Source: an uncultured Candidatus Saccharibacteria bacterium (GTDB lineage: Bacteria; Patescibacteriota; Minisyncoccia; Phycocordibacterales; PALSA-1337). From it: 64,000 nucleotides of DNA. The stretch lies in assembly GCA_964459225.1 (NCBI GenBank), contig CAYWKB010000001.1, positions 32,356-96,355 of the forward strand, written 5' to 3'. Below are positions 16,704 through 62,577 of this stretch, in pieces. Both the position numbers and the translations under genes were made by a program. How positions within the stretch are numbered: position 1 is the first letter of the stretch; every line of letters begins with the position of its first letter. The notes under the pieces are model-generated. The model saw nothing but the letters and a program-made list of their open reading frames with translations. It was not told the origin of the DNA and did no database searches.

Positions 16704-16705
16704 TG

Positions 16706-16778
16706 TGCGCGTGCTAGGATTCGAACCTAGGACCCCACCAGTATCAGTGGTGTGCTCTACCAACTGAGCTACACGCGC
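16706..16778 (-). tRNA. tRNA-Ile (anticodon GAT)
   Basis: GCGCGTG acceptor, GCTCAGTTGGTAGAGC D-arm, anticodon loop CTGATAC, GGTTCGAATCC T-arm; no encoded CCA. Confidence 0.85.
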
Positions 16779-16846
16779 ATACATTAAATCCCGTATTTAC
16801 CGTCAAAATATATCAAAAATCATTACTAATAGCAATTATAAAGTTT

Positions 16847-16875
16847 AAAGGTCGCGAGTGTAAGTCGCGACCTTT
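16847..16875. terminator. perfect 11-bp-stem hairpin AAAGGTCGCGA-gtgtaag-TCGCGACCTTT with T-rich flanks (bidirectional terminator-like)
   Basis: read directly. Confidence 0.5.
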
Positions 16876-16904
16876 GTTTGTGTTTGTTCATTTGTTTGTT
16901 TTTT

Positions 16905-17129
16905 CTACCAAGGGGTTACGATACTGATAGCAAGACTTGTTATTGGTAATGTCACAAATGCTATAAACATAAGTGCACAGAACACAACCTTTGACGCAGG
17001 CTGTCTGTCAAACCAGTTAATAACTCTCCTCCAAATTGGCTTTCTGGAGAGAAAATTATCACCGCCTAGCAATAGTACCCCTTGTAAAGGAGATAACGAT
17101 GAGCTTTTCATACCTTTAACTTTATACAC
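16905..17129 (-). CDS. small membrane protein, hypothetical
   Basis: 74 aa, C-terminal TM. Confidence 0.35.
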   Translation of the reverse strand: MYKVKGMKSSSLSPLQGVLLLGGDNFLSRKPIWRRVINWFDRQPASKVVFCALMFIAFVTLPITSLAISIVTPW

Positions 17130-17174
17130 CCTAATATTGATTATGTCAAATAAATTAAGTTATTAATCATTAAT

Positions 17175-17206
17175 AAAAAAGCACCCAGCATGGTCAATGC
17201 GGGTGC
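17175..17206 (-). terminator. hairpin GCACCC-N14-GGGTGC followed (minus strand) by TTTTTT
   Basis: read directly, 30 nt after stop of 17234-18316 ORF. Confidence 0.55.
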
Positions 17207-17233
17207 TTGTTATCATCGGAGGATGATGTTTAT

Positions 17234-18316
17234 TTAGTGAACTCCATCATCGGAATGATCGTAGAGGTCAAACTTAATTCTCATTCTACCATCAATTGGT
17301 AACTTACCCTTTTTCGGTAGTAAATACCCTACATGATTATCTCTAGGCAGCATGATTGCTCCAAATCCATGCTGAAATCCTTTACTTACTAGTGAGGGGT
17401 ACTTCGTTTTCCATTTCTCATGCTCATCTTCAGGATGAATACAAAGAGAAAAATTAGACGAACTTCCTCCTCCCTGCATTGAATTAATGTGAAGTGTTGG
17501 GATATCAAATCTCCAAGTGGCTACCCTATGTTGCTGGTCACGAGGAATACATCCAAGAACATCATTTTGTCGTTCCCCGTGAAGTAGCATTCCAAATAAG
17601 TAGCGTCTGACAGCGACAATATTATTCTGATCACTGTTATAAAGCCGTAAAAGGACTTCATCGCGTGCTCCATAAGACAATACTTTTGTTAAACACCCAT
17701 CACCCCTCCACCATTTTGTAGCGTTATAGCTCTGCATGAGACCTTGAAATCTATTTTCGTGGGAAAATCTTGTAGTCTTTTCCCATTCAGACAAGTTTTC
17801 CTCAAGATCAGGCAATATACTATAGAGTTTACTTAACACATCATCAGTGTGTTTAGCATGTCGATTTCGAGCAAACTTCTCCAGATCATCAACAGAGTGT
17901 GTAAGACCCCATATAATCATTGGTAATGTGATATATGGATCAAAGATGACTGCTGTGACTGGTGTAGTCTGATCTAGTGGAAATGATTCACCTTCAATCG
18001 TTTTTCCATATACTAGTGCATTGTACAATTCACTATAAGCATGTTCATGACCATCACGCCTAAGCTTAGCCAACAGACTCAGCATAACCCCAACACTTTT
18101 ACCATGATCGCTCCAGTCGCTTACCACCTTAGATGGTAGTGTGTTCACTCCTAAAAATGAATAGGAAGATTTACGGAAATACCGCCTACAATATTTAAAC
18201 GCATTATTATCGGTAAGTTTTTCGCGAAGCAGTTCCAACTGCTTCTCTCTACTTTTTTTACTAGGTGCAAAGACTCCAGGCAATTGATTCATAAAAAAAT
18301 CCATCTGAAGTGACAT
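17234..18316 (-). CDS. hypothetical protein, compositionally atypical (GC ~40%, Trp/His/Arg-rich)
   Basis: 360-aa ORF without recognisable motifs; GC clearly above genome background; located just downstream of 16S terminator. Confidence 0.45.
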   Translation of the reverse strand: MSLQMDFFMNQLPGVFAPSKKSREKQLELLREKLTDNNAFKYCRRYFRKSSYSFLGVNTLPSKVVSDWSDHGKSVGVMLSLLAKLRRDGHEHAYSELYNALVYGKTIEGESFPLDQTTPVTAVIFDPYITLPMIIWGLTHSVDDLEKFARNRHAKHTDDVLSKLYSILPDLEENLSEWEKTTRFSHENRFQGLMQSYNATKWWRGDGCLTKVLSYGARDEVLLRLYNSDQNNIVAVRRYLFGMLLHGERQNDVLGCIPRDQQHRVATWRFDIPTLHINSMQGGGSSSNFSLCIHPEDEHEKWKTKYPSLVSKGFQHGFGAIMLPRDNHVGYLLPKKGKLPIDGRMRIKFDLYDHSDDGVH

Positions 18317-18440
18317 CTCTTGCGAGATTGCCGATTGTCTAATCTATCTCTTGCGACATAGATGAGGACTGTAAACCACCATACACACGTATAGTGAAAT
18401 CCATTAACATAGTACTCTCATATAAATATTTGTAAATACC

Positions 18441-18478
18441 AAAACAAAAACCACTCTTTTGGAGTGGCTTTTGTTAAT
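18441..18478. terminator. hairpin CCACTC-tttt-GGAGTGG flanked by A- and T-runs (bidirectional); ends 16S transcription unit
   Basis: read directly. Confidence 0.5.
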
Positions 18479-18669
18479 ATTAACTGTTCTTTATTTTGTT
18501 CCGTTCATCCGGTCAGTATCTCTATAGAGGATACCGACCTATGTCCTTTATCTCGCGGACTGAGTGTTCACTTTTAGGATGTAGAACAATAATCCTTGTT
18601 TATCTTACGATAAAAATCGACTCGGTTAGAAATATTTACGCCGAAGCAATAAATAATTTCGTATGATCA

Positions 18670-20289
18670 AATTGAAATAATCCACGAGCAGCTTCCGCTA
18701 CCCGTGCCTTGTTACGACTTACTCCCTGTCATTGAGCTTACCTTAGGCCACGACAAGCGTAGACTTCGGGTATTCCCAACTCCCTTGAGTTGACGGGCGG
18801 TGAGTACAAGACTTGAGAACGTATTCACCGCAGTATAGCTGACCTGCGATTACTAGCAATTCCAACTTCATGAGGTCGAGTTGCAGACCTCAATCCGAAC
18901 TGGGGATAGCTTTATAAGGATTTGCTCCATCTTTCGACTTTGCGTCCTGTTGTACTATCCATTGTATCACGTGTGTAGCCCAGGGTATAAGGGACATGCT
19001 GACCTGGCGTCATCCTCACCTTCCTCCCACGACGCAGCAAACAATTTTACAGAGGTTAGGAAAAATTGGTTCACATCACTTGCGTGCGTAGTAACTTTTT
19101 ATATCTCTTACGAGCTATAAAAAGTTCTCCGCACCGGATGTTCACTCAATTTTTCATCATCTCAACAAAATTCCGCACTGTGTCGTGGGCAGTCTCGCCT
19201 GACAAATATAACAGACAACGAGGGTTGCGTTCGTTACCCCACTGAAGGGAACAACTCAAGCCACGAACTGACGACGGCCATGCATCACCTGACTAACTGT
19301 CTTGCGACGCCAAAAGTTTCTTCTTGGCTTCAGCTAGATTAAACCCTGGTAAGGTTCTTCGTTTATCATCGAATTAAACCACATGATCCACTGCTTGTGC
19401 AAGTCCCCGTCTATTCCTTTGAGTTTTAACCTTGCGGTCGTACTACCCAGGCGCTTCTCTTAACGCGTTAGCTACGCCACTCAGAGGGTCGATACTCCGA
19501 ATAGCTAGAGAAGATCGTTTAGGGCGTGGACTACTGGGGTATCTAATCCCATTCGCGACCCACGCTTTCTTGTTTCAGTGTCAGGAGTGCTCTAGTCTGC
19601 TGCCTTCGCTTTTGGTGTTCCCCATAATATCAACGCATTTTACCGCTACACTATGAGTTCCGCAGACCTCTCGCATCCTCTAGTCATACCGTTTCCCTTG
19701 CATGCCCCCGGTTAAGCCGAAGAATTTAACAAGAGACTAATATAACCACCTACACAACCTTTACGCCCAATGATTCCGGATAACGCTTGAGGCACTCGTA
19801 TTACCGCTGCTGCTGGCACGAGTTTAGCAACCTCTTATTCGCCAAGTACTATCAATAAACTTTCTCCCTGGCAAAAGAACTTTACATGCCTAAGCACTTC
19901 ATCGTTCACGCGGCGTCGCTCCGTCAGACTTTCGTCCATTGCGGAAGATTCTCGACTGCGGCCACCCGTAGGTGTATGGACCGTGTCTCAGTTCCATCGG
20001 TGGGGGTCACCCTCTCAGGTCCCCTAGGCGTCATAGCCTTGGTGAGCTTTTACCTCACCAACTAGCTGATACCGAGCAGGCTCATCTTGAAGCGATAAAT
20101 CTTTAGTCTTTCGACACCATCAAGTATTAACTCATCTTTCGATGAGGTATTCCTGACTTCAAGGTTGATACCTACTTATTACTACCTCGTCTGCCACTGA
20201 CTATATATTGCTATACAGCCCGTTTGACTTGCATGCCTTATCCACGCCGCCAGCGTTCATCCTGAGCTAGGATCAAACTCTTAACTAAA
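18670..20289 (-). rRNA. rrs: 16S rRNA (about 1620 nt) with ~140-nt AT-rich expansion in helix 40 (plus coords ~19030-19175) and non-canonical 3' tail lacking CCUCC
   Basis: rc matches AGAGTTTGATCCTAGCTCAG (20262-20281), GTATTACCGCTGCTGCTGGCAC, GGACTACTGGGGTATCTAATCC, ACGGGCGGTGAGTACAAG, CCTTGTTACGACTT; flanking leader/trailer complementarity (18481-18507 vs 20290-20330). Confidence 0.9.
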
Positions 20290-20535
20290 ATGAACGGAAC
20301 AAAATAGAAAACAGTAATACTTAAATTATAGCTTTTATCTTGATCTTGTTTTAGATGATATAGAGTTCAAACTTCGCTCCCGTTAATGTGAATAAATTAA
20401 CTTGGAATCATTTTAAAATAAACATTAAACTTGCACGCATTCAATATCATTTGAATTCGAATACGTTCTTTAATGCACAACTTACTAAATTGTCGAAAAA
20501 CTCATTAAATTCGCCTTACTTAAGGCGTAGGTAGT

Positions 20536-20563
20536 ATTCTACTCGAAGTAATTTTAAAGTCAA
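20536..20563 (-). promoter_or_regulatory. candidate 16S promoter TTGACT-16nt-TAGAAT on minus strand, ~250 nt upstream of mature 5' end
   Basis: rc of 20558-20563 = TTGACT, rc of 20536-20541 = TAGAAT. Confidence 0.4.
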
Positions 20564-20585
20564 GCGAAAATGTATATTTATACCA

Positions 20586-20801
20586 TTAAGCAATCAATCC
20601 CTGCTCTTTCAACAATTTCAAAGCCTCTTCAGCTTTTTCTTTTGAAACATAAATATGTTGTGATGTTGCTGCAGTTGTTGTACCTTTCCATAACAGAGAA
20701 TCCACTGCTGGAGCATATGTTGCATGTATTCCTACACCATCCAAATAACCAACTATAATTTGCGCATTTACAATTCCTGAAGCTGTAACGATTTGTTTCA
20801 T
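20586..20801 (-). CDS. small hypothetical protein
   Basis: 71-aa ORF. Confidence 0.35.
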   Translation of the reverse strand: MKQIVTASGIVNAQIIVGYLDGVGIHATYAPAVDSLLWKGTTTAATSQHIYVSKEKAEEALKLLKEQGLIA

Positions 20802-21319
20802 TACTTTAATTTATTTTTAAGTAAACTTATTATACTATAAAAATAATCTTTAGTTCTTGATTTTTTATTCTCTTCTTTAATAAAAAGATGCACTGGTATG
20901 ATAATATTTGCCAACAGTATTAATATTGCTATAAATATTACTATACTATAGATAGGATGAATAATTATTGAAAGTGGATACTTTAATATACCCCAAAAGG
21001 ATAGTCCTAAAAATAAGGATGGATAAAATGAATGATAGATCAAATATAACACATAAAACCAGGCACTCTTAATTTTATAAGCAAACAAAATCAGTTGAAT
21101 TGTAATCAAGGACATAAATAATTCAAATCCGACGAAAAAATATATAAAATAAGATAAGGGTGAATCATCTATATCAGCCGAGATCACATCTGCCGGTGTA
21201 TTCAAATAACCAAAAGTAGTGTTGTAAACACCGTAACAAATAACTAAAATAATATGTAGGGTTGTAATAATAAATATTATATTAATTATACTATTTAATT
21301 TTGGACTAATTTTATTCAT
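20801..21319 (-). CDS. polytopic membrane protein, hypothetical
   Basis: 172 aa, 4-5 TM helices. Confidence 0.4.
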   Translation of the reverse strand: MNKISPKLNSIINIIFIITTLHIILVICYGVYNTTFGYLNTPADVISADIDDSPLSYFIYFFVGFELFMSLITIQLILFAYKIKSAWFYVLYLIYHSFYPSLFLGLSFWGILKYPLSIIIHPIYSIVIFIAILILLANIIIPVHLFIKEENKKSRTKDYFYSIISLLKNKLK

Positions 21320-21323
21320 AGTA

Positions 21324-22232
21324 TCATTTCTTTTTTCCCTTATTTTTTTCCTGCCATTTCCATATTGTTACAAGTAATGGTGAGCCTAGGAACACTGATG
21401 AATATGTTCCTGCAACTATACCGATTATGAGCGCCAAAGAAAAATGTTGTGTTGACTCACCACCAACAAAATAAAGTACAATTAGAGCCAATAATGTAGT
21501 TAATGAGGTATTTATTGATCTTGTGAATGTCTGACTAATACTTTCCCCTACAATTTGGTCAAATGGCTTCTTTGAATTACCTTCTTTTAGATTTTCTCTT
21601 ACTCTATCGAATACAACTATTGTATCGTGAACTGAAAAGCCTAGAACTACTAGAAGTGCGGTAACAAAGAGAGTATCTACTTCATATCCCTTATAATGTC
21701 CTAATATTGAAAATGCTCCTGTAGGTATTATCACATCGTGAATTAGTGCAATGATAGCTACAAAGCCATATTTCCATGAAGAAATCGGCAAAGACACATG
21801 TCTAAAGGCATAAGCAATAAACAAAACGATAGCTAATATTACAAAGACAATTGATGTTAGAGACTTAATCAATGCTTCAGTTCCTAGTATAGGACCTATT
21901 GAATCAAATCTTTTTTCGTTTATTGAAACTTTACCGTATTCACCTATTACACTTATTAATTTATTTTTTTCACTTTGATCAATAGATTTCATCTTGATTA
22001 TATAGCCCTTTTCCCCTGTTGCTCTTATTGAAGCATCATAATTTAAAGGTGAAATCATTGAAGATAGTGCTGATTGTTCTGGTCTTGCATCTGTATATTC
22101 GATTTCAAGTATTGATCCACCCTTAAAATCTATACCAGGATTTAAGCCCCACTTTGCCACAGCAATTCCAGATACAATAACGAGTATCGCTGATAATGTG
22201 TAGAAAAGTTTTCTGTATTTTACGACAAACAT
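21324..22232 (-). CDS. secF: protein-export membrane protein SecF
   Basis: 302 aa, SecF topology and GPILG/FD.I motifs, immediately downstream of secD. Confidence 0.85.
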   Translation of the reverse strand: MFVVKYRKLFYTLSAILVIVSGIAVAKWGLNPGIDFKGGSILEIEYTDARPEQSALSSMISPLNYDASIRATGEKGYIIKMKSIDQSEKNKLISVIGEYGKVSINEKRFDSIGPILGTEALIKSLTSIVFVILAIVLFIAYAFRHVSLPISSWKYGFVAIIALIHDVIIPTGAFSILGHYKGYEVDTLFVTALLVVLGFSVHDTIVVFDRVRENLKEGNSKKPFDQIVGESISQTFTRSINTSLTTLLALIVLYFVGGESTQHFSLALIIGIVAGTYSSVFLGSPLLVTIWKWQEKNKGKKK

Positions 22233-22233
22233 A

Positions 22234-23622
22234 TTATTTATTTAAATTATTAGTAATTGTTCTAGTAAATCCGTTACTTACCAAAAATGTTGATATTTTA
22301 TTGGTCTTTTTTGGTGCTACAGAGTATAAGAATACTCTAGAAGCAGTAATAGCTGTAAACATACTTACAAGCACTCCGATTAGGAATACTAGTGCAAATC
22401 CAGTAATTACTGATGTACTACCAAAATAATAGAGAATTAAGCCCGTAATAATACTTGATGTATTTGAATCACGTATTGAAAGCCATGCTCTAGCAAAGCC
22501 TTCGTGCATCGCTTCACTTATTCCCTTTCCTCTTCTTAATTCCTCTTTCATTCTTTCAAAGATAAGCACATTTGCATCCACCGCCATTCCGATTGAAAGT
22601 ATAAACCCTGCTATTCCTGCAGCCGTTAGAGTAACTGGTAGCATTTTAAATACAAACAACATTATAAGTGTATAAACAGCAAGTGATACAACAGCAATAA
22701 AGCCAGGTAGTCTGTACCAGATTATCAAAAATATACCTATAACAATTAGTGATATTACTCCAGCTCTAATTCCCCCATTTAAAGCACTTTGTCCAAGTGA
22801 TGCTCCCACAGTTTGAGTTGAAATTAATTCGATAGGTACTGGCAATGCACCGTAATTTAGATTTCTTACTAATAACTTTGCCTCATCAATATTAAAGGCA
22901 CCAGATATAACCGCCTTACCATCTCTTATTTCATCCCTGACAGTTGGTAATGATATAGGACTTCCATCTAAGAATATTCCTACAATATTACCCACATTTT
23001 CCTTTGTGACTTTTGCAAACAAATTTCTACCTTCTGAATTAAAACTTAATGATACTGAAGGCTCACCCGTTGTTTGATTGAATTCGAGTGTTGCTCTTTC
23101 AAGCATTCTACCTGTAATGCCAGTTGGCTTAAACAATTTCATCATTTCCTTTGTCTTTTCCTCATCAGTAGCACTACTATCTTTATATTTCGTATTAAAC
23201 GCTTCTGAATCTTCTTTATTTAAAACCTGAAATTCAAGAACTGGTGTCTGACCTATCATACTTATTGCCTCATCAATGTTTGTAACACCAGGTAATTCGA
23301 CTATAAGCTTTTCTTGAGCTTCTTTTGTACCAAGAACACCCGCTTGTTCAACTTGCACAATTGGTTCACTTACACCAAAAACATTCACTCTTTTTTCAAT
23401 AACATCTCTTAATGCCTGCATTGAAACCCTAACCTCAGAAGAGGCTATCTTTGAAACATCAGCTTTATACACCAAATGTGTACCGCCATTTAAATCCAAT
23501 CCTAGTTTAAAGGGTCTACTTAGATTTGATTCTGTATTAACTATTTGTGAATAATATGTAAACCAACCAATGACTAATGAAATAATAATCAGAAATACGG
23601 CAATAATTCTTGTTTTAAGCAT
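22234..23622 (-). CDS. secD: protein-export membrane protein SecD
   Basis: LGLDLNGGTHLVYKAD, 462 aa. Confidence 0.85.
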   Translation of the reverse strand: MLKTRIIAVFLIIISLVIGWFTYYSQIVNTESNLSRPFKLGLDLNGGTHLVYKADVSKIASSEVRVSMQALRDVIEKRVNVFGVSEPIVQVEQAGVLGTKEAQEKLIVELPGVTNIDEAISMIGQTPVLEFQVLNKEDSEAFNTKYKDSSATDEEKTKEMMKLFKPTGITGRMLERATLEFNQTTGEPSVSLSFNSEGRNLFAKVTKENVGNIVGIFLDGSPISLPTVRDEIRDGKAVISGAFNIDEAKLLVRNLNYGALPVPIELISTQTVGASLGQSALNGGIRAGVISLIVIGIFLIIWYRLPGFIAVVSLAVYTLIMLFVFKMLPVTLTAAGIAGFILSIGMAVDANVLIFERMKEELRRGKGISEAMHEGFARAWLSIRDSNTSSIITGLILYYFGSTSVITGFALVFLIGVLVSMFTAITASRVFLYSVAPKKTNKISTFLVSNGFTRTITNNLNK

Positions 23623-23667
23623 AATAGGTCTATTATAGAGATTTAATTGCTTTTTGCAATAATAAAG

Positions 23668-25047
23668 CTATCTACCGACAAATGTAACAAGTACTTTTAA
23701 TGTTCTAAGTGCAATCTTTAAATCAAGGGAAAGTGATCTATGTTTAATATAATAAAGGTCATAAGATAGCTTATTTGCTGTCTCGACTATATCTATACCA
23801 TGATGAGGATGCATTTCATGATAAATTTGTGCCCAACCAGAAAGTCCAGGTTTAATACTATGACGAATAGTGTAATTTGGTATTTGTTCAGTGTATTTAT
23901 TTACTGCATCTCTGAATTCTGGTCTAGGGCCAATGAGTGATATATCACCTTTAATAACATTCCATAATTGTGGTAGTTCATCTATTCTTGTTTTTCTTAA
24001 AAATGAACCAACAACTGTGACTTTATTTTCCTTTTGACCCCATTTACCATCATCATTTGCTATATTCATAGTTCTGAACTTAACAATATTTATCATTTTA
24101 TCGTATTGTCCTACTCTAGTTTGATAGCTGAATATTTCACCATCATCCTCAATTTTAATTGCAATGATAACAAACGGATAAATAACAAGCGAAATAATAC
24201 CCAAAACAGAGGCAATAATAATATCCATTAGCCTTTTAATACCATCATAAACGAGCTTTGGTGCCATTGATGACATATGTTCAATAAACCAAGTATTACC
24301 AATCATTGAAACTGGTATACGATCAAAAATATTTTCATATATTTTACCTATTCCATAAAACAAAACGCCTTGTAGAGCAATTCCATAAAGTGAAGGAATA
24401 ATCGCACTTACCCTTTTATCATTCGTATCTAGAACAACTAAACTTATATCATATTGTGAAATTGTGCTTTTAATTTCCTTTAATAATTCCTGACTATTAT
24501 CATTTGGTATAATTGTTTTAATAAAATTAATATCATATCTAGAATTACTATTAACTTCATTTTCTAATTCTTTTGACTCATTTGTATTTGCTATCAAAAT
24601 GGCTTTTTGAACCTTATCCCCTTTTTTATCTGAACTAAATTTATAAACAAAAAATATTCTCCAACAATAAATCAGAATGAGTGATAGTACTAAGAAAAGA
24701 AATAGAACAAATTTAGGGGCAATAGAAAAATTTGGAATAAAATAAAAGAAAGCGATACCAACAATAGTATTTACTAATTGTACATTTAGTAGTGTTAGGG
24801 GTAATTTATTTCTTAATAAAATAGTATGCTTTTCGTATAAACCTGCAATAAAATACACCAAGATAAATGCAATAAACAAAATTGAAAAAGGAATGATATG
24901 TAGCTCTAAAAGATTTAGAGAAGGAAATTCACCATATCTAAGTACCAAGGTCAGTACAAGTGACGCTAATAACACCAATATATCCCCAATAAACAGTATT
25001 ATATGGTCTTTTCGGTGAAATCTATTCATATGCGATATAATACACAA
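23668..25047 (-). CDS. polyprenyl-phosphate sugar phosphotransferase (bacterial sugar transferase, WbaP/WcaJ-like)
   Basis: KRLMDIIIASVLG...FRTM...IDELPQLWNVIKGDISLIGPRPE. Confidence 0.8.
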   Translation of the reverse strand: MCIISHMNRFHRKDHIILFIGDILVLLASLVLTLVLRYGEFPSLNLLELHIIPFSILFIAFILVYFIAGLYEKHTILLRNKLPLTLLNVQLVNTIVGIAFFYFIPNFSIAPKFVLFLFLVLSLILIYCWRIFFVYKFSSDKKGDKVQKAILIANTNESKELENEVNSNSRYDINFIKTIIPNDNSQELLKEIKSTISQYDISLVVLDTNDKRVSAIIPSLYGIALQGVLFYGIGKIYENIFDRIPVSMIGNTWFIEHMSSMAPKLVYDGIKRLMDIIIASVLGIISLVIYPFVIIAIKIEDDGEIFSYQTRVGQYDKMINIVKFRTMNIANDDGKWGQKENKVTVVGSFLRKTRIDELPQLWNVIKGDISLIGPRPEFRDAVNKYTEQIPNYTIRHSIKPGLSGWAQIYHEMHPHHGIDIVETANKLSYDLYYIKHRSLSLDLKIALRTLKVLVTFVGR

Positions 25048-25075
25048 AAATCAAGAAAAATGGTACTCTTTTAGT

Positions 25076-26245
25076 ATGAAGGTGCTTTTACTTATCACCA
25101 AATCAAATATGGGTGGCGCACAGAGATATGTATACGATATCGCCACAAATTTACCTAAAGACATCTATGAAGTAGAGGTTATGGCGGGAGGTAATGGGCC
25201 ACTTATTGAAAGCCTGCAATCCGCTGGAATAAAAGCTTCAGGAAATTTACCTGTAGGTAGAGATATAAATCTCATTCAAGATATAAAATCTTTTTTTGAA
25301 TTATTTAAAATAATAAGAGAAAAAAAGCCAGATGTATTACATGTAAATAGTTCTAAAATAGGCGGCATCGGAGCATTTATTGGTAGATTACTTGGAATTA
25401 AAAACATAATATTTACCGCTCATGGTTTTGCATTCAATGAAGACAGAAGTCGTCTTTCTAAATTAATTATTAAGTTCTTCCATTGGTTAACTATTTTCCT
25501 TTCTCATAAAACTATATTAGTTTCAGAAGCCTTAAAATATCAAATAGCAGATTGGCCATACATAGAAGGCAAATTATATGTAATTCGTAATGGTTTAGAT
25601 AGCAAAGCAGTATATTCTAAAATAAATGCTAGGTATGAATTAGGGAAAATCAATAAAGACTTTGATAAAATAATTAAAGAAAATAAAAACACAATTATAA
25701 TAGGCAGTGTCGGTGAATTGCATCACATAAAAGGCTATGAATACGCTATTAGAGCTATTTCAAACTTAATAAAAGATATTAGAAAGAGTAGCCCCGATAA
25801 AAAAATAATCTATACAATATTTGGTGAAGGTGAAGACAGAATTAACATAGAAAAAGAAATACATTATCAAGAATTAAAAGACTCAGTAATATTATTTGGT
25901 AATATCAAAGACGCATTTCAATATATGAAGGCATTTGATATTTACCTTATGCCATCCATATCAGAAGGATTACCATATGCCCTTCTTGAGGCGGGTATTG
26001 TTGGTCTTCCGGTTGTTGCTAGTGCAGTAGGTGGAATACCTGAAGTTGTGGAGGATATGAAAACTGGTGTATTAATACAATCTAAAAAACCAAAAGAAAT
26101 TCAGCATGCATTAGAATTCTACATATCACACAAAAAGATTCAGGGTGATCATGCAAAATTGTTAATGACTAATATTCAGAACAATTTTTCTATTTCAAAA
26201 ATGCTTGAAAATACAATCAAAGTATACAATACTAAGCACCAATAA
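25076..26245 (+). CDS. glycosyltransferase family 4 (GT-B)
   Basis: EGLPYALLEAGIVGLPVVASAVGGIPEVV motif. Confidence 0.75.
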   Translation: MKVLLLITKSNMGGAQRYVYDIATNLPKDIYEVEVMAGGNGPLIESLQSAGIKASGNLPVGRDINLIQDIKSFFELFKIIREKKPDVLHVNSSKIGGIGAFIGRLLGIKNIIFTAHGFAFNEDRSRLSKLIIKFFHWLTIFLSHKTILVSEALKYQIADWPYIEGKLYVIRNGLDSKAVYSKINARYELGKINKDFDKIIKENKNTIIIGSVGELHHIKGYEYAIRAISNLIKDIRKSSPDKKIIYTIFGEGEDRINIEKEIHYQELKDSVILFGNIKDAFQYMKAFDIYLMPSISEGLPYALLEAGIVGLPVVASAVGGIPEVVEDMKTGVLIQSKKPKEIQHALEFYISHKKIQGDHAKLLMTNIQNNFSISKMLENTIKVYNTKHQ

Positions 26246-27395
26246 ATTCATTTTTCATATCGTCTTTATGGGCTGTTCTTCTATATCTTCTCATACCCAT
26301 TAATATTCCGAGTCCAGTGAATTCTGTTAGTAAATGCGTACCACCATAACTCAAAAAAGGTAGCGTGGTTCCAGTAACAGGAAGCAATTGAATATTCATA
26401 CCAATATTAATAAAAAAGTGCACAACAATAAGTATCGCAACACCTGTACCAAATAATATTTCAAAATTCGAATCTCCTCTCATGCTGTTTCGTACTATTC
26501 TCCATATAACTATACCGAAAAGTGAAAATACAATAATCACTCCGATAAATCCCCATTCTTCTGCAAATGCTGCAAAAATAAAGTCAGTTTGATATTCAGG
26601 TAGGAATTTTAATCTAGACTGTGTGCCATATCCAACACCCTTGCCCCATATTTGCCCTGACCCCACCGCAATTGTCGATTGATAGGCATTATAGCCAGTA
26701 CCATGTATATCTGCCATAGGATTTATGAAGTTCAATATTCTATTTTTCTGATATTCCTTGAAGCCAAAATTCCATAGCCCTATAAACATCATAATTCCCA
26801 GCAAAATCATACCTAAAAGATGTTTTTTGGATAAACCCGATACGAATATCATTCCTAGCCATATAAAAAATATTATAATTGCAGAACCAAAGTCAGGCTG
26901 TATCAATACCAAAAGGAAAATCGTAAATGCATATATACCAGATATAAATATATGTTTTAAATCAGCAATTTCTATATGTCTTCTTGAAAAATACTTTGCT
27001 AAAATGATTATCACAACAAGCTTAATTGGGTCTGATGGCTGAAATGACAGTAGTCCAAAATCAAACCACGATATCGCTCCTTTTGTTACTTTTGCAACAA
27101 AAAATAGCAGCACAAGAAGGAAACATGATCCAAAAAAAAGAGTTACAGAAACCCATGTCTTTCTTAAAAATCTAAAATCTATAAAACTCAGACTAAAAAA
27201 TATTATAAGGGAAATACAAATCCAAATTGACTGCTTTTCAAAATAACTACCATCTCCAACAAATGAATTCATAGTGATAAGTCCAGCACCAAGTAGTGGT
27301 AAAGTAGCTAGGAAAAGTATCCAGTCTATACCCGCCTTATCACCATTATTCATTATTGAATAACTTCCAAATAGTCTTTCAAAAATATTTTTCAT
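26232..27395 (-). CDS. ftsW: SEDS-family peptidoglycan polymerase/lipid II flippase (FtsW/RodA)
   Basis: 10-TM SEDS pattern, 387 aa. Confidence 0.75.
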   Translation of the reverse strand: MKNIFERLFGSYSIMNNGDKAGIDWILFLATLPLLGAGLITMNSFVGDGSYFEKQSIWICISLIIFFSLSFIDFRFLRKTWVSVTLFFGSCFLLVLLFFVAKVTKGAISWFDFGLLSFQPSDPIKLVVIIILAKYFSRRHIEIADLKHIFISGIYAFTIFLLVLIQPDFGSAIIIFFIWLGMIFVSGLSKKHLLGMILLGIMMFIGLWNFGFKEYQKNRILNFINPMADIHGTGYNAYQSTIAVGSGQIWGKGVGYGTQSRLKFLPEYQTDFIFAAFAEEWGFIGVIIVFSLFGIVIWRIVRNSMRGDSNFEILFGTGVAILIVVHFFINIGMNIQLLPVTGTTLPFLSYGGTHLLTEFTGLGILMGMRRYRRTAHKDDMKNEFIGA

Positions 27396-27411
27396 AATAT
27401 ATTCCTACAAA

Positions 27412-28179
27412 CTAATTAGGTATCAAATTGAGAAGCACATCTTGTCTTACAACCTGACCATTTCTCGAAACTGGCCATGTAAATACTGCTGTTTCTTTTG
27501 AATTTTTTGATATATTATCGACTTTTGTTTGTGAAAAACCGATAACATTATCATCAATATCATACAATATTACTGATACCAGTATATTTGTATATGGATA
27601 TAATGTTTTATTTTCTAATATAATTTGCAAACTTGATGTCTTATCATCCTCCTCATATTTCTTATCAATTATTGATATCCCTGCTAATTGATCATTTGAT
27701 TTAAACCATAGCGGTGAATTAATAAATTCAAAAGTAGCCGTTTTCGGAATACTATTGTTTACCTTTATTGCATTTTCAAAAGCCAATGAATCCCTATGTG
27801 GGTAAAGATTTACCTTACCCAATCTCTCAGTTATCAAAACCCCTTCTGCATCATAAAGTGAAATCTTATATGGTACTTTTATTGCACCCCCTATTATATT
27901 TGGATTTATGATATATGACGAAGCATTATATAATCCGTTTGCTAACTTTTCGAGTTTTGCTCCTCCCCATTTTATCCGTGGTGGCAAAAATGCACTTTGA
28001 CAAAGTCTTTTGCATGACCCTCCACAATCTAATCCTGTTTCGTCTCCATTTTGTTTACCATCAAAGCAAGTTGGTGCTTTATAAAAAAGCTTGAATAAAG
28101 GAACTATGATAAGTACTCCTAATAATATTATTGCTGATCCTGCATATGTTAATTTTCTTTTTGTTGACCAGGTTGCCAT
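27412..28179 (-). CDS. membrane-anchored Cys-rich hypothetical protein
   Basis: 255 aa, N-terminal TM, CFDGKQNGDETGLDCGGSCKRLC. Confidence 0.4.
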   Translation of the reverse strand: MATWSTKRKLTYAGSAIILLGVLIIVPLFKLFYKAPTCFDGKQNGDETGLDCGGSCKRLCQSAFLPPRIKWGGAKLEKLANGLYNASSYIINPNIIGGAIKVPYKISLYDAEGVLITERLGKVNLYPHRDSLAFENAIKVNNSIPKTATFEFINSPLWFKSNDQLAGISIIDKKYEEDDKTSSLQIILENKTLYPYTNILVSVILYDIDDNVIGFSQTKVDNISKNSKETAVFTWPVSRNGQVVRQDVLLNLIPN

Positions 28180-28291
28180 GGCTTAAGTATATAGTATTTG
28201 AGCTGTTTACTGTACTATTGACTTTATGTACTATATATGGTATCATATTAATAGTCAGAGGTTGGACAACTAAAACTTAAATTTAGAATGT

Positions 28292-29116
28292 ATGAGAGTC
28301 CTAATGTTCATTGTCATGGTGGTGGCGGTCGCAACAATAAACTGCACTGCGGATCCAATAGTACGAGCACCTCGCGTGAGTGAGAAGCTCAAAGAGAAAA
28401 TAGACTACTACAAAAAGGTAGCCGAGGGTCAAAAATACCCGAATCATTTTGTATCAGTCGAGGGGCAGTGGTCAAATGAGTACTCGTCTGCTCAAGAACT
28501 GCCAGACTACTTCGTAGTCAAAGCATCTAATCGTGATGGGGGGCGAATCCTAAAAATGTCCCCCATCGGGACGGTATTTGGCGGAATGTCAGTACCACCA
28601 GTATTCACGGATGTGCTAACTGGAGAAGTGTTTTTTCCTTCACTCCAGACACAAGATGTCCGCAATGGTCCATATGACTATACAAGTACCGACGGAAGAC
28701 TACTGGAAAACTATTTCCAGTACGGATCATTGGTGATCCATGGTGATGTTTACAATATTGTCATCGCCTATGCAGACACACCCCGCTATCCCACAGTCTC
28801 AATGACATGGGGAGCCGAATCAGATCTAATGCATGCCGGAACAATAATTGATACATTCGATGATGTCTCAGTTGAGGATCCGGCAACAGAAACAGAGGTC
28901 TGGTTGCATAATTCAAAAGGAGAAGTTGGTCTATCGGATGGGTTATATCTGTTGGTCTCATCACCAAAAGAAGTAGCACAACTACGAATTGAAACATCAA
29001 CCGATTTAAAAAGTTGGCGAGAAATGACAGTACAACCATATTATATATTTGGTGATGTTATTGTCTACCAAATCCCTTCGGCTAATCTAGGATTCTTTAG
29101 AGCAAAAGAGCTCTGA
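28292..29116 (+). CDS. secreted hypothetical protein, GC-rich (~47%) relative to genome
   Basis: signal peptide MRVLMFIVMVVAVATINCTADP; composition anomaly. Confidence 0.45.
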   Translation: MRVLMFIVMVVAVATINCTADPIVRAPRVSEKLKEKIDYYKKVAEGQKYPNHFVSVEGQWSNEYSSAQELPDYFVVKASNRDGGRILKMSPIGTVFGGMSVPPVFTDVLTGEVFFPSLQTQDVRNGPYDYTSTDGRLLENYFQYGSLVIHGDVYNIVIAYADTPRYPTVSMTWGAESDLMHAGTIIDTFDDVSVEDPATETEVWLHNSKGEVGLSDGLYLLVSSPKEVAQLRIETSTDLKSWREMTVQPYYIFGDVIVYQIPSANLGFFRAKEL

Positions 29117-29140
29117 GAAAGACCGGAATTAGCTCAAACA

Positions 29141-29177
29141 AAAAAGCGCATTGATCATTATGATCTCTGCGCTTTTC
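29141..29177. terminator. hairpin AAAAGCGCA-N17-TGCGCTTTT (nested GATCAT/ATGATC inner stem)
   Basis: read directly, 25 nt after stop. Confidence 0.55.
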
Positions 29178-29213
29178 CTTTTACCTTAAACTTGACCAGG
29201 TTGCTATTTGAAT

Positions 29214-30128
29214 TTATTGTATACCTCTTTCTAACCTCACATTTTCTTGTATTTGTGCACCACTATTATCTCTACTGTATTTTAAAGATTGGACAACAAT
29301 AATTGGTACTATCGTTATTAGTAATATTGAAATTATTACACCATAAACAGTTAACGCTACAAATACTTTTTTCTGTTTTTTTAATTTTTCATCTGGCACA
29401 ACCTCAATCTTAATAGATTTCAATGAACTATATATTTTATAAATTAAAATAAAATATATCGATGATATCATGATTGGCACAAATTGATTTATAATTCCAA
29501 ACATAATCTCGGCATACTTTGGAAACATTGAAAAATGAACTAATATTATCTGAGGAACAATTATTACAAGTATAAAGAAAAAAGATATAAGAGAAGCAAC
29601 TAGAGTGACATTAAATACATTAACAGCATTTCCCTTAATATAATTATAACTTGCAATTAATGCTTGATATCCCTTTTTTTCTTCTTTAACTAAAACGACT
29701 TGTACCAACATCAGGTACATTCCAAGTATTAGAGCAGGAAGTATGAATGGCACAAATGAACCCATAACTACTATTGCCATTATTAGGGAAATTAAGAGTA
29801 CACTAGGAAGCTTTTTAAACGCGTATTTATATGATTCATTTAATGAAAAATTATTATTTTCAATATCCGACATAGATTTATAAAATATAATTGGTAATAA
29901 AATATTTATAAATGCTGACAACATCGAAATTATAAATGACACAAATGAAGATATTGATTCAATACCAGTCTCAAAACTTGGACCACTTGTTAGTGTCTGA
30001 GATACACCTATCAATAGAGGCACTAACATTATTGATAATATTATTTTGAAATTATCTCTGTAGTAGATTACTGACTCTTTAATTATTTGTGTAATTTTTG
30101 GAAAACTTCCAATTGTGTTTGTGTCCAT
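29214..30128 (-). CDS. polytopic membrane protein, hypothetical
   Basis: 304 aa, ~8 TM helices. Confidence 0.4.
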   Translation of the reverse strand: MDTNTIGSFPKITQIIKESVIYYRDNFKIILSIMLVPLLIGVSQTLTSGPSFETGIESISSFVSFIISMLSAFINILLPIIFYKSMSDIENNNFSLNESYKYAFKKLPSVLLISLIMAIVVMGSFVPFILPALILGMYLMLVQVVLVKEEKKGYQALIASYNYIKGNAVNVFNVTLVASLISFFFILVIIVPQIILVHFSMFPKYAEIMFGIINQFVPIMISSIYFILIYKIYSSLKSIKIEVVPDEKLKKQKKVFVALTVYGVIISILLITIVPIIVVQSLKYSRDNSGAQIQENVRLERGIQ

Positions 30129-30206
30129 TTTATTTTTATTATTTTTTTCTATTATAACAAAAATAACACTATTTCTCCATAGTGTCTGTGTTGTTTTAAT
30201 TGAATA

Positions 30207-30321
30207 CTTTGTACTGGCGACTAGCTACTTTCCCCTTCATATGAGTATCATCGCCGCAACTGCGTTTCACTTCCGTGTTCGGAATGGGAACGGGTGTTTC
30301 CACAGCGCCAAATCACCAGAA
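30207..30321 (-). rRNA. rrf: 5S rRNA
   Basis: rc contains GCGTTTCACTTCCGTGTTCGGAATGGGAACGGGTGTTTCC matching conserved 5S core. Confidence 0.8.
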
Positions 30322-30720
30322 CAAAAAATTCAATCTGTTGATAAAAATTCAGATAAACAAAAGCTTATCGAATTTTAATAAATAAAGGTTTGTGCTTGTT
30401 ATAGACAAGTAATTGTGGTTCTTAAATTTCCTAATAGGATCGACGGATTAGTACTTCTCAGCTTAACATATTACTATGCGTACACCTAAAGCCTATCAAC
30501 GTAATCATCTCTTACGGGTCTCAAACGATTCCTAATCTTGGGGTTGGCTTCCTTCTTAGATGCTTTCAGAAGTTATCCATTCCGAACATAGCTACACTGC
30601 GATGCTCTTGGCAGAACAGCAGTCACACCAGAGGTTCGTTCAATTTGGTCCTCTCGTACTAAAATCAAATCCCCTCAAGAATCAACGCCTGCAGTAGATA
30701 GGAGACCAACCTGTCTCACG

Positions 30721-31276
30721 CTTGTTATCATAGATTACTCTATGCAATGGACTATAGCTTCACCTTCTTACGAAGGTTGTTAACGTTTAGTCTCTACGGG
30801 TGTTTATGAGTTTTGAAGAGAAGGCGAGACACAAGTTCCTGAGCTTTCGCCCCTCGTCCCCTAGGGGACTCTTAGGCGTGATTCCTTCGGATACGCCTAG
30901 CAATACATGTGCCTCACCAAAATTTGAGAACAAAAATTCTCTACAAAACTCACAAACTTCCCTCGGTATTATCCCTTTTTCATGGACTTCCACCGATTTT
31001 AGTTAACTTGATCTTTCTTATATTACTATAAGTGACCGCCGTGTTTGATTGATCTACTTCCTATACTTTTATTTTGTATAAATGTTACTTTATACTTTTC
31101 TTAAACGAAAAACTCGAAGTGATTCAGACTGTTCAATTGTTATAATTGCTTTACAAAATTATATTTCTCAAAATACTCGCATACTTTTCTGCTGAAAAGT
31201 TGCTCTTCTCGGCGCCAAGCGCCTGCGAAAGGTATTTTTCGAAACAAATTTTGCTCCGCTTAGTCATCACAACTAA
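30721..31276 (-). ncRNA. group I-like intron in 23S at E. coli position ~2593 (between ...AGACCGU and CGUGAGACAG), ~556 nt, no convincing homing-endonuclease ORF
   Basis: exon sequences contiguous in E. coli are split here; 5' exon ends in U, insertion ends in G; internal GCGG can pair with exon CCGU (P1 with U.G); known hotspot for group I introns. Confidence 0.55.
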
Positions 31277-31942
31277 ACGGTCTGAACCCAGCTCGCGTAA
31301 CTTTTTAATTGGCGAACAGCCAAACCCTTGGAAGCTTCTCCACCTCCAGGATAAGTTGAGCCGACATCGAGGTGCCGAACTGCGCCGTCGCTATGAACGC
31401 TTAGGCGCAACCAGCCTGTTATCCCTAGAGTAGCTTTTGGTCCGATAATCTTCCCCCGCGTCTAATGCGTAAGGTCGGTTCACTATGTTCTGCTTTCGCA
31501 TCTGTTCGACAAGTACGTCTTACAGTCAAGCCAGCTTATGCCATTACACTATCGGCACGGTTTCCATTCGCGCCTAGCTGACCTTAATAAACTCCTCCGT
31601 TACTTTTTAGGAGGATAGCGCCCCACTAAAACTGCCCGCCAGATTCTGTCTCTTGCCGTTTTTGCCGTCAAGGTTAGAATATATATTTTTTAAGAATGGT
31701 ATTTCACTGTCGGATCCATCTTCCCCGAAAGAAAAACTTCAAATCCTCCCATCTACGCTACGCATAAAAAACATATAGTCAAAATCAAGTTGCAGTAAAG
31801 CTTCTAGGGTCTTTTCGTCTAACTGCAGGTAATCGGCATCTTCACCGATATTGTATTTTCACCGAGCAAGTCTCCGAGACAGTTCTCCAGACATTACACT
31901 ATTCGTGCGCGTCAGAACTTACCTGACAAGGAATTTCGCTCT

Positions 31943-32194
<252 letters not shown>

Positions 32195-32997
32195 CAGGGC
32201 TTACAACAGTCAGCTTGATATAATCGCACCGCCGTTGTTTGACCTTCTGGCATTGGTCAAGTGTCACCCCCTATACATCCTCTTACGAGTTCGCAGGGAG
32301 CTGTGTTTTTGATAAACAGTTGCCAGAGATACTTTAGCTGCGGCCCTTCTTGCGAAGGGCAAGCCTTATTCCGAAGTTACGGCTGATTTTTTGCCGAGTT
32401 CCTTGGAGACCTCTCACTCGTTCGCCTTGGTCTACTCGACCTGAACACCTGTGTCGGTTTGCGGTACGGTTCCTGCATAGATAAGTTTAGAAGATTTTCT
32501 TGGAAGCGCGCTTTATAACATCTAAAAGGGCGAACCCCTCTATTTTCACTCTACTCGGAATTGTCATCAAAGACATTACCCGGATTTTCCTGGGTAAATT
32601 CCCTATAGCATGAACTCAAATCCAATAATGAGCGTCATATACTGCACTCCGTCCCTTCATCACTCTATACAAAAGTCATGGAATATTAACCATGTGTCCA
32701 TCGGGTGCGGTTTTCACCATCCCCTTAGGCCCGACTAACCCTTGGCTGATTTACATAGCCAAGGAAACCTTGTTCTTTCGGCGTGCCGGATTCTCACCGG
32801 CATTGTGGTTACTTGTGCCAACATTCTTACTTCCAAACGCTCCAGCATGGCTCACGCCTTTGCCTTCAACGCAGATTGGAATACTCTCCTACCACTGTAT
32901 ATTATCGAAATAAAATACAATCCTCAGTTTCGGTATCATGTTTAACCCCGATTATCTGCGGCGCAGAATCTCTCGATGAGTGAGCTGTTACGCTTTC

Positions 32998-33029
<32 letters not shown>

Positions 33030-33602
33030 TCATTGTTTGAGAAATTCAACCACCTTAAGCGTACTTAACATGAATTTAGGGACCTTAAATGGAGATCTAG
33101 GCTGTTTCCTTTTTGACGTATGGAGCTTAGCCCCCACCGTCTAACTGCTGAATAATTTAACCTCTGTATTCGGAGTTTGATAGGTCTCGTGATCTTTCGA
33201 CCTGTCGAGACCTTCCAGTGCTCTACCCCAGAGGGGTACATTCAACGCTAGCCCAAAAGCTATTTCGGAGAGAACCAGCTATTACCAGATTCGATTAGCT
33301 TATCACTCCTTACCTCAAGTCATCGCAGAGAATTGCACAACTCTAGCGTTCGGACCTCCCTTTCCACTTCTGAAAAGTTCATCCTGCTCAAGGCAAGCTC
33401 ATCTGGCTTCGGGTCTGATGCATACTACGAACGCGCTATTCACACTCGGTTTCCCTGTGGCTCCAGTCTCTCGACCTTAGCCTGCAGCATGCTTCAACTC
33501 GTTGGCTCATTCTTCAATAGGCACGCAGTCGAGGTATTGCTACCTCTTCTACTCCTTGTAAATATATGGTTTCAGGTCTATTTCATCGCCCTTACCGGGC
33601 TG

Positions 33603-33642
<40 letters not shown>

Positions 33643-34545
33643 TTCTAGAATATTTAGCCTTACCGGTTAGTTCCGGCAGATTCCCCCGAGCTATTCGTGT
33701 CTCGAGGTACTCAAGAATAGGAACAAAAAAGATCTTTTGATTTCGACTACAGGGCTATCACCTTCTGGGGCTAAGCTTTCCAGCTTATTCTTCTATCAAA
33801 AAATTTTGTAACTTTTCTGTTATAAATAACACGTTCCTACCTTACTACCCCCAACCTTTATCGCACGATAGGACATGAGAGACATTGCTGTCCCCCAAAA
33901 TTCCTATAGCACGATAAAGGTTGAGTTTGGGCTCTTCCGCTTTCGCTCGCCGCTACTTACGAAATTCTTATTTAGTCTCTATTCCTCCAGGTACTGAAAT
34001 GTTTTACTTCCCTGGGTGCGCATTCAAATATCAAGTACTTGAATTCTGACTCGAGGTCAGAGGGTTTCCCCATTCGGAGTCTTCCGGATCAAAGGTTGCT
34101 AGGCACCTCCCCGGAAAATATCGTCGCCATGCCACGTCCTTCATCGCTTCTTAGAAGCCTAGGCATCCACCATATACTCTTAAATTTCCCATTAGGAAAT
34201 CTAAAAACCACAATTATTTGTCTACAACTTACAACATACTATTTAATGTATATATTCGAAAAAACCCTAACATATATACATCTTATAGTATTACCTTTAT
34301 TTATCACTCAGTAACTTCCTGATTGTTGAAATTACTGAGTTATTTAATTGTCAATGTTTCTGTCATTATGTTATTGAATTTTTCATTTCAATTTTACAAA
34401 AAAATCGCTTTATTAAGCGACCTTTCCTAACACCGTTTTAAAGCGTTATTATGGCCGTTTAAATAGTGAAGTTTTTAACATATTTCTGTGTAAGGGATAG
34501 TGTATACGAAGGTGAAATTAAAGTCAATAGCGATACATAAAATAG

Positions 34546-62487: not shown

Positions 62488-62577
62488 TGGCGGAAAGAGC
62501 GAGATTCGAACTCGCGGTTCCGATGAAGGAACGGCGGTTTAGTAAACCGCTGGTTTAAACCACTCACCCATCTTTCC
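62488..62577 (-). tRNA. type II tRNA, Ser identity (long variable arm, G73 discriminator, CCA encoded) with anticodon loop UUACUAA -> anticodon ACU (A34)
   Basis: GGAAAGA/TCTTTCC acceptor, 3-bp D stem, GCGGT-TTACTAA-ACCGC anticodon arm, GTTCC/GGAAC variable arm, GCGAG-TTCGAAT-CTCGC T-arm. Confidence 0.7.

Follow-up and report, generated by a model that had tools for sequence, protein, structure and literature searches.

The 64,000-nucleotide (nt) stretch of contig CAYWKB010000001.1 analyzed here (hereafter the window) carries on its minus strand, at 30428..34196, a full-length bacterial large subunit rRNA gene (Rfam, 2230.8 bits). This 23S gene is 3769 nt long, compared to the 2925 positions of the Rfam model, and its excess over the E. 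coli gene falls into three parts: about 110 nt near positions 270–310, 219 nt after U1931 and 556 nt after U2593. The last of these, which interrupts helix 93 in the peptidyl-transferase centre (domain V) and has the features of a group I intron, is the main subject of this report. It is exactly 556 nt long, has a G+C content of 37.8% and runs on the minus strand from 31276 (first base) to 30721 (last base); intron position p is window position 31277-p throughout, and all features described below are on the minus strand unless otherwise indicated.

Around the insert the RNA strand reads ...GGGUUCAGACCGU, then UUAGUUGUGAUG...GAUAACAAG, then CGUGAGACAGG...; the 5' junction joins GGGUUCAGACCGU to UUAGUUG... 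and the 3' junction joins ...AUAACAAG to CGUGAGACAG. Alignment by MAFFT with an E. coli rrl copy (L002) places the break after the U of GAACGU, that is, between U2593 and C2594 (column 2596 of this copy, whose numbering runs 3 nt ahead of the standard). MAFFT mis-split the insert itself, and its 3' end was set by eye from the sequence. The boundaries at 31276 and 30721 cannot slide, because the 5' exon ends in U, the intron runs from U to G and the 3' exon starts with C. An earlier note on this DNA had described a 556-nt split at 30721..31276 after position 2593, with an upstream exon ending in U and an insertion ending in G; its coordinates are exact, the alignment to E. coli rrl agrees with the position and both terminal bases are as it stated.

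The group I core and its relatives

When the Intron_gpI covariance model (RF00028) was run on an isolated 601-nt stretch it matched over its full length (model positions 1–253) at 31035..30728, with 41.8 bits and an E-value of 2.6e-9, and the R (GUAGAGACUAAAC) and S (GAAGCUAUAGUCC) elements are aligned in this match in their textbook form. Read 5' to 3' in the RNA, the core begins with the P2 hairpin and its GUAA (GNRA) loop at 31012..31035, followed by the P3 5' strand GUUAAC (31002..31007) and by P4-P5-P4' (UCGGUG...UACCGA around a short P5 hairpin, 30963..30996), whose J4/5 has the conserved A residues. P6 (GGG/CCC) then carries an extension of 154 nt that is unique to the window (30798..30962 for the whole of P6; the extension is intron 321–474, 44.8% G+C). 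The R element at 30785..30797 supplies the P7 5' strand G[A]GACU together with J6/7 and J7/3, and it is followed by the P3 3' strand GUUAAC (30779..30784), the P8 hairpin ACCUUC GUAA GAAGGU (30762..30777), the S element (30749..30761), which supplies J8/7 and the P7 3' strand, and finally, at 30721..30747, P9.0 (UUG/CAA), P9 (CAUAGA GUAA UCUAUG) and the terminal omega-G (30721). P7 reads G[A]GACU/AGUCC, with a G-C pair beside the bulged A. Only 4 nt separate P7 from P3' and 1 nt separates P3' from P8, so there is no P7.1/P7.2, and the same is true of the related introns described below. Assignment to an IA-like subgroup is ruled out by this absence of P7.1/P7.2, and an IC1-like assignment by the short P5.

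Relatives were collected by an exact-pattern scan (AGACTAAA..TATAGTC..CGTGAGACAG) of one genome per bacterial species, and the same R...S...CGUGAGACAG arrangement is present at at least 119 bacterial loci. Among the matches listed, every record title with a taxon name, except one, points to the candidate phyla radiation (CPR)/Patescibacteria, with Parcubacteria, Paceibacterota, Moranbacteria, Nomurabacteria, Taylorbacteria and Kaiserbacteria among the names given; the remaining titles say only 'bacterium' or 'uncultured bacterium'. From these loci we extracted 103 introns at the same site, 233–715 nt in length. The nearest among the matches listed is in a metagenome-assembled genome of Ca. Taylorbacteria (L091), with 87–89% identity in the intron (blastn) and 95.9% in the flanking 23S sequence.

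Covariation was measured in an alignment of 64 sequences that extends from the guide sequence to the 3' exon. In the structure as written 91.7% of cells are paired, whereas only 32–41% are paired when the 3' partners are slid by 1–3 columns. Changes on both sides were found in 32 pairs, and the observed covariation score was reached by none of 500 shuffles. The pairs changed on both sides include 8 of 8 in P2, all six each in P3 and P8, 5 of 6 in P9 and 2 of 3 in P9.0, and pairing is nearly complete in P3 (98.2% of cells), P9.0 (97.9%) and P9 (98.9%). P4 (98.7% paired) and P6 (100%) are nearly invariant, with one compensatory change each, and P7 is 100% paired and never varies. MAFFT misaligned P5, which forms a hairpin in each of ten per-sequence folds inspected, that of the window included. 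A GNRA loop closes P9 in 61 of the 64 sequences and P2 in 45, the terminal G is present in 104 of 104 introns, and every base that is invariant in the family is kept in the window intron. A family covariance model (R1) built from 42 members, with the window and its nearest relative excluded, matches the insert at 30715..30858 (71.3 bits, E 2.6e-15) and at 30871..31043 (56.4 bits, E 7.9e-12); the match comes in two halves because the 154-nt P6 extension splits it. The E-values of Intron_gpI (2.6e-9) and R1 (2.6e-15 and 7.9e-12) mean that the insert is not a chance feature, and its group I fold is established as far as sequence analysis can go. The classification as group I made in the earlier note is therefore upheld by the Intron_gpI E-value, the covariation and the family model, and the P7/P9-type elements that it had placed near the 3' end are indeed there, with R/P7, P8, S/P7', P9.0 and P9 all within the last 110 nt.

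The insert holds no endonuclease open reading frame (ORF). Its longest frames are two of 68 amino acids, at 30787..30993 on the minus strand and 30800..31006 on the plus strand, and neither matches a Pfam family at E<=10, in agreement with the earlier note, which had reported only 68-amino-acid frames. A degenerate LAGLIDADG remnant, for which that note had proposed a search, was not found by Pfam or by tblastn, in which the best score of three family endonucleases against the window intron (21.2 bits) equals the best of 20 shuffles. The ends of the 68-amino-acid frame (..IIPREV.. and ..INTRRD before a stop) look like parts of the relatives' endonucleases, but as remnants of such a gene they were rejected; the likeness comes solely from the conserved ribozyme core, whose P4'/P6 and P6'/R are translated in the same frame.

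About 95 of the 103 extracted introns are likewise ORF-less. Among the matches listed, four relatives (L013, L017, L019 and L053) have an ORF of 150–180 amino acids in the P6 loop that starts just after P4'/P6. Its product is a LAGLIDADG_1 protein (L053, used as the positive control, gives E 8.8e-12) and matches I-CreI, I-MsoI and I-CvuI over the full length (E about 1e-25). These three enzymes cut 23S rDNA at the L2593 site. The ORF-bearing members of the family encode an I-CreI-type LAGLIDADG endonuclease in their P6 loop. The frame of L019 and L053 stops at the UAA of the R element, and those of L013 and L017 continue past it. We note that the I-CreI-like frame overlaps the ribozyme core at both ends, reading P4'/P6 as ..IIPREV.. 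and, on read-through, R as ..PVETK.., so the same bases serve RNA and protein. In the window the place of the relatives' LAGLIDADG gene is occupied by the P6 extension, which is highly structured (-72 kcal/mol, z = -7.3). That this extension is a repeated or mobile element was rejected, since neither the rest of the window, nor 119 related loci, nor the metagenome collection contains another copy.

The guide sequence and the exon-intron helix at the 5' splice site

Directly 5' of P2 lies the sequence CACG followed by GCGG (31036..31043, intron 234–241), and a motif (U/A)CACGGCGG is present at this place in 100 of 103 related introns. Its GCGG can pair with the last four bases of the 5' exon, CCGU (-4 to -1), to give a U(-1).G238 wobble followed by G-C, C-G and C-G pairs (P1), and its CACG is complementary to the CGUG that begins the 3' exon (P10; the P10 columns are 99.6% paired). 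The two bases after GCGG covary with the P2 3' strand and not with the exon; P1 is thus 4 bp long and stacked directly on P2. Covariation between exon and guide was sought as a test of P1 and had to be set aside, since -6 is the sole variable exon position and the covariation of the bases that follow GCGG is with P2. Judged by its conservation and position, intron 234–241 is the classical P1/P10 internal guide sequence of this intron.

The exon strand that this guide would read is also complementary to a second element of the intron. Upstream of the guide, the pattern ACAGU(C/U)UGAAUC(C/A) is matched by 94 of 104 introns (88 distinct sequences), and it is the complement of the last 13 exon bases, GGGUUC(G/A)GACCGU. 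In the 88 distinct sequences exon position -6 covaries with the element without exception, 58 having G-C and 30 A-U. The helix, which measures about 23 bp across the family and more in the window, is continued into the intron: the 10 nt before the element and intron positions +1 to +10 are paired in 86.6% of cells, by many different pair types, compared to 59% when strands are swapped between introns and 38–49% when they are slid. At the end nearest the splice site the helix is imperfect; the splice-site U faces A in 84% of members and G in 14% (12 of 88), and C(-3) faces A in 80% and is unpaired in 91%. We found no description of an exon-intron helix of CPR L2593 introns in the searchable literature.

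In the window the 13 exon bases involved (GGGUUCAGACCGU, 31277..31289, E. coli 2581–2593) are complementary to the element ACAGUCUGAAUCA at 31120..31132 (intron 145–157), which makes 11 of 13 pairs with the exon, pairing with -1 to -12 while C(-3) faces A. The adjoining first hairpin, the long-range helix H1, is formed in minimum-free-energy folds by its 5' strand UUAGUUGUGAUGA (31264..31276, intron 1–13) and its 3' strand UUAUAACAAUUGA (31133..31145, intron 132–144), with 9 of 10 pairs between intron 1–10 and 135–144, and the whole helix consists of exon -12 to -1 plus intron 1–13 paired with intron 132–156. An A+U-rich insertion of 118 nt in the H1 loop (31146..31263, intron 14–131), shared in part only with L096, L058 and L101, extends the same rod. 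This 5' rod is the minimum-free-energy structure, at -73.3 kcal/mol (z = -6.9). Between the element and the guide lies a second hairpin domain of the 5' region (31045..31119, intron 158–232), which is homologous to the corresponding region of L091, L037, L028 and others.

We infer that the exon-intron helix clamps or tethers the 5' exon during transcription and that the guide invades the weak end of this helix. A more far-reaching proposal, which we put forward tentatively and hold to be possible without thinking it probable, is that the CPR L2593 introns form a distinct structural class that lacks P7.1/P7.2, has a distant guide and uses the exon-binding element as a functional clamp. In such a class a large L1 domain would hold the guide at its distal end, 60–240 nt away from the splice site; the clamp would keep the G2581–U2593 strand out of rRNA folding and tether the 5' exon; and the GCGG of the guide would invade the last four pairs of the helix, which would be deliberately weakened. 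An exon-complementary element may even be a general design of CPR rRNA introns.

The 219-nt insert after the U1931 equivalent (31941..32159) is a second ORF-less group I intron in the same gene (Intron_gpI on a local stretch, 26.4 bits, E 5.7e-5; its exon ends in U and the intron in G), and site 1931 is also interrupted by an intron in 20 of the 55 related loci that cover it. After their first hairpin the L1931 introns have the sequence GGACU(G/A)GGACUGU, which is complementary to the exon ACGGUCC and shows two compensatory changes (L072 and L118), and this element hints at the same exon-tether design.

Splicing and the competing explanations

Taken together, these findings make it very probable that the insert after U2593 is a true group I intron, an ORF-less member of a large CPR family, and that it occupies the only 23S gene of a CPR bacterium of the Parcubacteria/Paceibacteria type. 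During transcription the long exon-intron helix would form first and hold the 5' exon, for which intron 145–157 or UCUGAAUC is a possible tether. The GCGG of the guide would then have to displace the last four weak pairs of this helix (U-A, G-C, the CxA mismatch and C-G) before catalysis could occur. The guide would align both exons, with GCGG:CCGU placing G opposite the splice-site U as in classical group I chemistry. An external guanosine, bound in P7 at the G-C pair beside the bulged A, would attack after U2593, and P9.0 and P10 would then position the terminal G and the CGUG of the 3' exon in the active site. The ligated exons would read ...GGGUUCAGACCGU joined to CGUGAGACAGGUUGG..., and helix 93 would be restored by the ligation. 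Having no endonuclease, the intron would no longer home, would be inherited vertically and would persist because it splices.

Several observations weigh against this interpretation. The Intron_gpI score of 41.8 bits is below the gathering cut-off of 50 bits and a Rfam run on the whole window reports no intron, so that the covariance search proposed as a check in the earlier note formally fails. The shortfall is due to a 130-nt insert in P6 and a poorly aligned P2 region, and the intron call therefore rests on the E-value, the covariation among relatives and the family-specific model. The P7, R and S sequences are part of the search pattern, and their invariance in the family is uninformative for this reason. 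P1 is only 4 bp long and the exon bases that pair in it are invariant, so P1 and P10 are supported by conservation and not by covariation. When 65 precursors were folded with a nested model, 56 of the minimum-free-energy structures contained the long helix over the splice site, and the average penalty for imposing P1 was about 14 kcal/mol; to self-splice efficiently, the intron may on these figures require a rearrangement, a pseudoknot or a helper. An exchange confined to the last four pairs is likelier, but nested folding has no means of representing it. Three contigs of the same organism in the Logan collection (L003, L123 and L124, from SRR14271374 and SRR14271365) encode proteins identical to those that flank the rRNA genes. 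On the 5S side they end about 170 nt past the flanking gene; on the 23S side they continue for about 1 kb past it and end within the 5' part of the 23S gene. As these short-read assemblies stop at the rRNA genes, they provide no independent assembly of the intron-containing 23S gene.

The uninterrupted 45-nt site is present in 28 metagenome contigs. Two contigs of 2.0–2.6 kb that contain only 23S sequence, L139 (Ga0099778_1003616) and L137 (Ga0099772_1000734), are collinear with, and 93% identical to, the window 23S gene minus both introns. They were rejected as evidence of splicing, as the DNA of intron-less relatives and assembled rRNA transcripts are indistinguishable in this collection.

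The folding results lend themselves to another explanation, that the core is intact but unable to splice alone, its 5' site being locked until a protein acting in trans (a maturase-like LAGLIDADG protein or an RNA chaperone) intervenes or until splicing is coupled to ribosome assembly. The long helix in 56 of 65 minimum-free-energy structures, the cost of about 14 kcal/mol for forcing P1 and the shortness of P1 all speak for such a dependence, and the endonuclease gene has been lost from an intron whose kind of protein sometimes doubles as a maturase, according to PMC11270868. However, about 95 of 103 members are ORF-less, and their core is nonetheless clearly maintained by purifying selection, with compensatory changes; P1 requires the exchange of no more than the four weak pairs at the end of the helix, which a nested model is unable to depict; and Patescibacterial tRNA group I introns self-splice in vitro (PMC13011429). 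We consider this explanation unlikely.

A different P1 had been proposed in the earlier note, in which a GCGG near the 5' end of the insert pairs with the exon CCGU. That GCGG exists, at 31256..31259 (intron 18–21), and can make the pairing; in the window a hairpin UUAGU/ACUAA would precede it, and the two pairings together would make an uninterrupted helix of 9 bp in which the splice-site U is in a U.G wobble, leaving the distal CACGGCGG motif with some other role. The proximal GCGG is not conserved, however. It is missing from the nearest relatives and from the family, and its position is filled by unrelated bases in L096 and L058, even though the window's 5' insertion occurs in both. When the 5' domain is folded to minimum free energy, intron 1–13 is paired with 132–144 and the proximal P1 is not formed. 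It is the distal motif, next to P2 and the source of P10 as well, that 100 of 103 introns keep. The proximal GCGG is probably a chance match, and we regard it as very unlikely to be the true P1; that part of the note's claim gives way to the guide at intron 234–241.

It might also be supposed that the long exon-intron helix is itself the catalytic P1 of a non-canonical intron, with U-A (or, in 14% of members, U.G) at the splice site. This helix is conserved and covaries, the splice site is inside it as in a normal P1, and G is opposite the splice-site U in 12 of 88 members. A U.G wobble at the 5' splice site is, however, a nearly universal requirement of group I introns, and the pair in the long helix is U-A in 84%; J4/5 retains the conserved A residues that read the wobble, and a perfect canonical guide with G opposite U adjoins P2. 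We find this hardly credible. Least credible of all is that the insert is left unspliced, either retained in the mature 23S rRNA as an expansion or excised without ligation to give a fragmented 23S in the manner of an RNase III-processed intervening sequence (IVS): one unspliced bacterial 23S group I intron has been reported (Everett 1999, as cited in PMC11270868) and the long double-stranded rod of the 5' domain (z = -6.9) superficially resembles an RNase III substrate, but this rod holds 13 essential exon bases (G2581–U2593) of helix 93 whose cleavage would destroy the rRNA, the conservation with covariation of the core elements, terminal G, P9.0 and P1/P10 guide would be senseless in an unspliced spacer, CPR rRNA insertions are reported to be absent from transcripts (PMC11270868), and the known IVS sites are elsewhere in the 23S gene. 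The insert is not of the IVS type by its own features either, as helix 93 is no known IVS site and the ribozyme core is complete.

With splicing of a genuine group I intron as the favored interpretation, the finding is an ordinary one for CPR bacteria, in which ORF-less 23S introns are a known and very common feature. It does mean that the mature 23S rRNA has 2994 nt with both introns out, and not 3769 nt. Both introns are below standard Rfam thresholds, and automated pipelines would report an over-long 23S gene; primers or probes that span 1931 and 2593 would fail. The intron represents the end state of a homing cycle, in which the endonuclease is gone and the ribozyme is kept, and it is a further illustration that CPR bacteria, whose genomes are tiny and have a single rRNA gene, can nevertheless live with introns at the catalytic centre of the ribosome. 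What is of wider interest is the helix that encloses the 5' splice site throughout the family; if functional, it would offer a simple and mutationally tractable system for studying competition between an intron and rRNA folding over an essential exon strand.

Genomic setting and comparison with known introns

The window has a G+C content of about 31% and a dense set of bacterial genes that includes those for L10, L7/L12, RodA/FtsW and SecDF. An organelle origin, which split rRNA genes might suggest, is ruled out by these dense bacterial genes and the 31% G+C. The 5S gene is downstream of the 23S gene at 30320..30212 (minus strand, Rfam). The rRNA genes are unlinked and in an unusual order within 16705..34196 (minus strand), 23S-5S being followed by about 10 kb with nine protein genes and then by the 16S gene (20288..18670). 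After 16S come an ORF of 360 amino acids without a Pfam match (17234..18316) and tRNA-Ile(GAU) (16705..16778), and there is no tRNA-Ala near 16S or tRNA-Ile. The roughly 110 extra nt in domain I of the 23S gene (about 33811..33920, minus strand) appear in the Rfam alignment as inserts of about 54 and 19 nt near model positions 282 and 313; they have no intron signature and are probably an expansion or IVS-type segments. Farther away, at 62488..62577 on the minus strand, is a class II tRNA called as Ser (Rfam, 56.4 bits) with the anticodon loop UUACUAA and the anticodon ACU (A34), which is unusual for bacteria, where GCU is expected. A 'Plastid-psbI-rps4' match on the opposite strand is the mirror image of this tRNA-Ser (62488..62577).

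The CPR 23S L2593 introns surveyed by Tsurumaki et al. 2024 (PMC11270868) share host group, gene and site with the window intron. In that paper, insertions were found in 82% of 348 CPR 23S genes, 45% of the insertions were group I introns and 222 of the group I introns were ORF-less; position 2593 recurs as a LAGLIDADG_1/group I site, introns with and without an ORF are intermixed and, apart from the ORF, highly similar, and the authors state, with reference to Brown et al. 2015, that such insertions do not remain in the transcripts. The survey called introns with the Rfam model, and the window copy (41.8 bits against 50) could be missed at that cut-off. We found no secondary structure, guide sequence or 5' exon-intron helix described in the accessible portions of the CPR 23S intron papers. 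The window copy does not differ in kind from these CPR introns and adds its own 154-nt P6 extension and 118-nt first-hairpin insertion.

Cyanobacterial introns at the same site (Synechococcus sp. C9, S. lividus C1 and Thermosynechococcus elongatus; Haugen et al. 2007, PMC1995217) resemble the window intron in their short P5 and short P2. In contrast to it, they are 744–748 nt long, all carry a full ORF and have a P7.1/P7.2 of about 65 nt. The Simkania negevensis L1931 intron (Everett et al. 1999, as cited in PMC11270868) is likewise in a bacterial 23S gene, in a reduced genome with a single rRNA gene, but it is reported to be unspliced and differs in site and intron family from the window L2593 intron. 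The endonuclease of the CPR family is a homologue of I-CreI, I-MsoI and I-CvuI. The chloroplast Cr.LSU intron, which encodes I-CreI, is also an L2593 intron.

Two other systems offer parallels to the helix at the 5' splice site. Woodson and Cech reportedly described in 1991 an alternative 5' helix of the Tetrahymena pre-rRNA, P(-1), that competes with P1, and the ribozyme of Lee et al. from 2010 is said to be a c-di-GMP-controlled group I ribozyme in which alternative pairings compete with P1. The likeness is that a helix on the bases of the 5' exon or splice site excludes P1 or exchanges with it. Compared to both, the CPR competitor is encoded by the intron, is 13 nt long, is continuous with the helix at the intron start and covaries family-wide, and, unlike the c-di-GMP ribozyme, the CPR introns have no evident ligand-binding domain.

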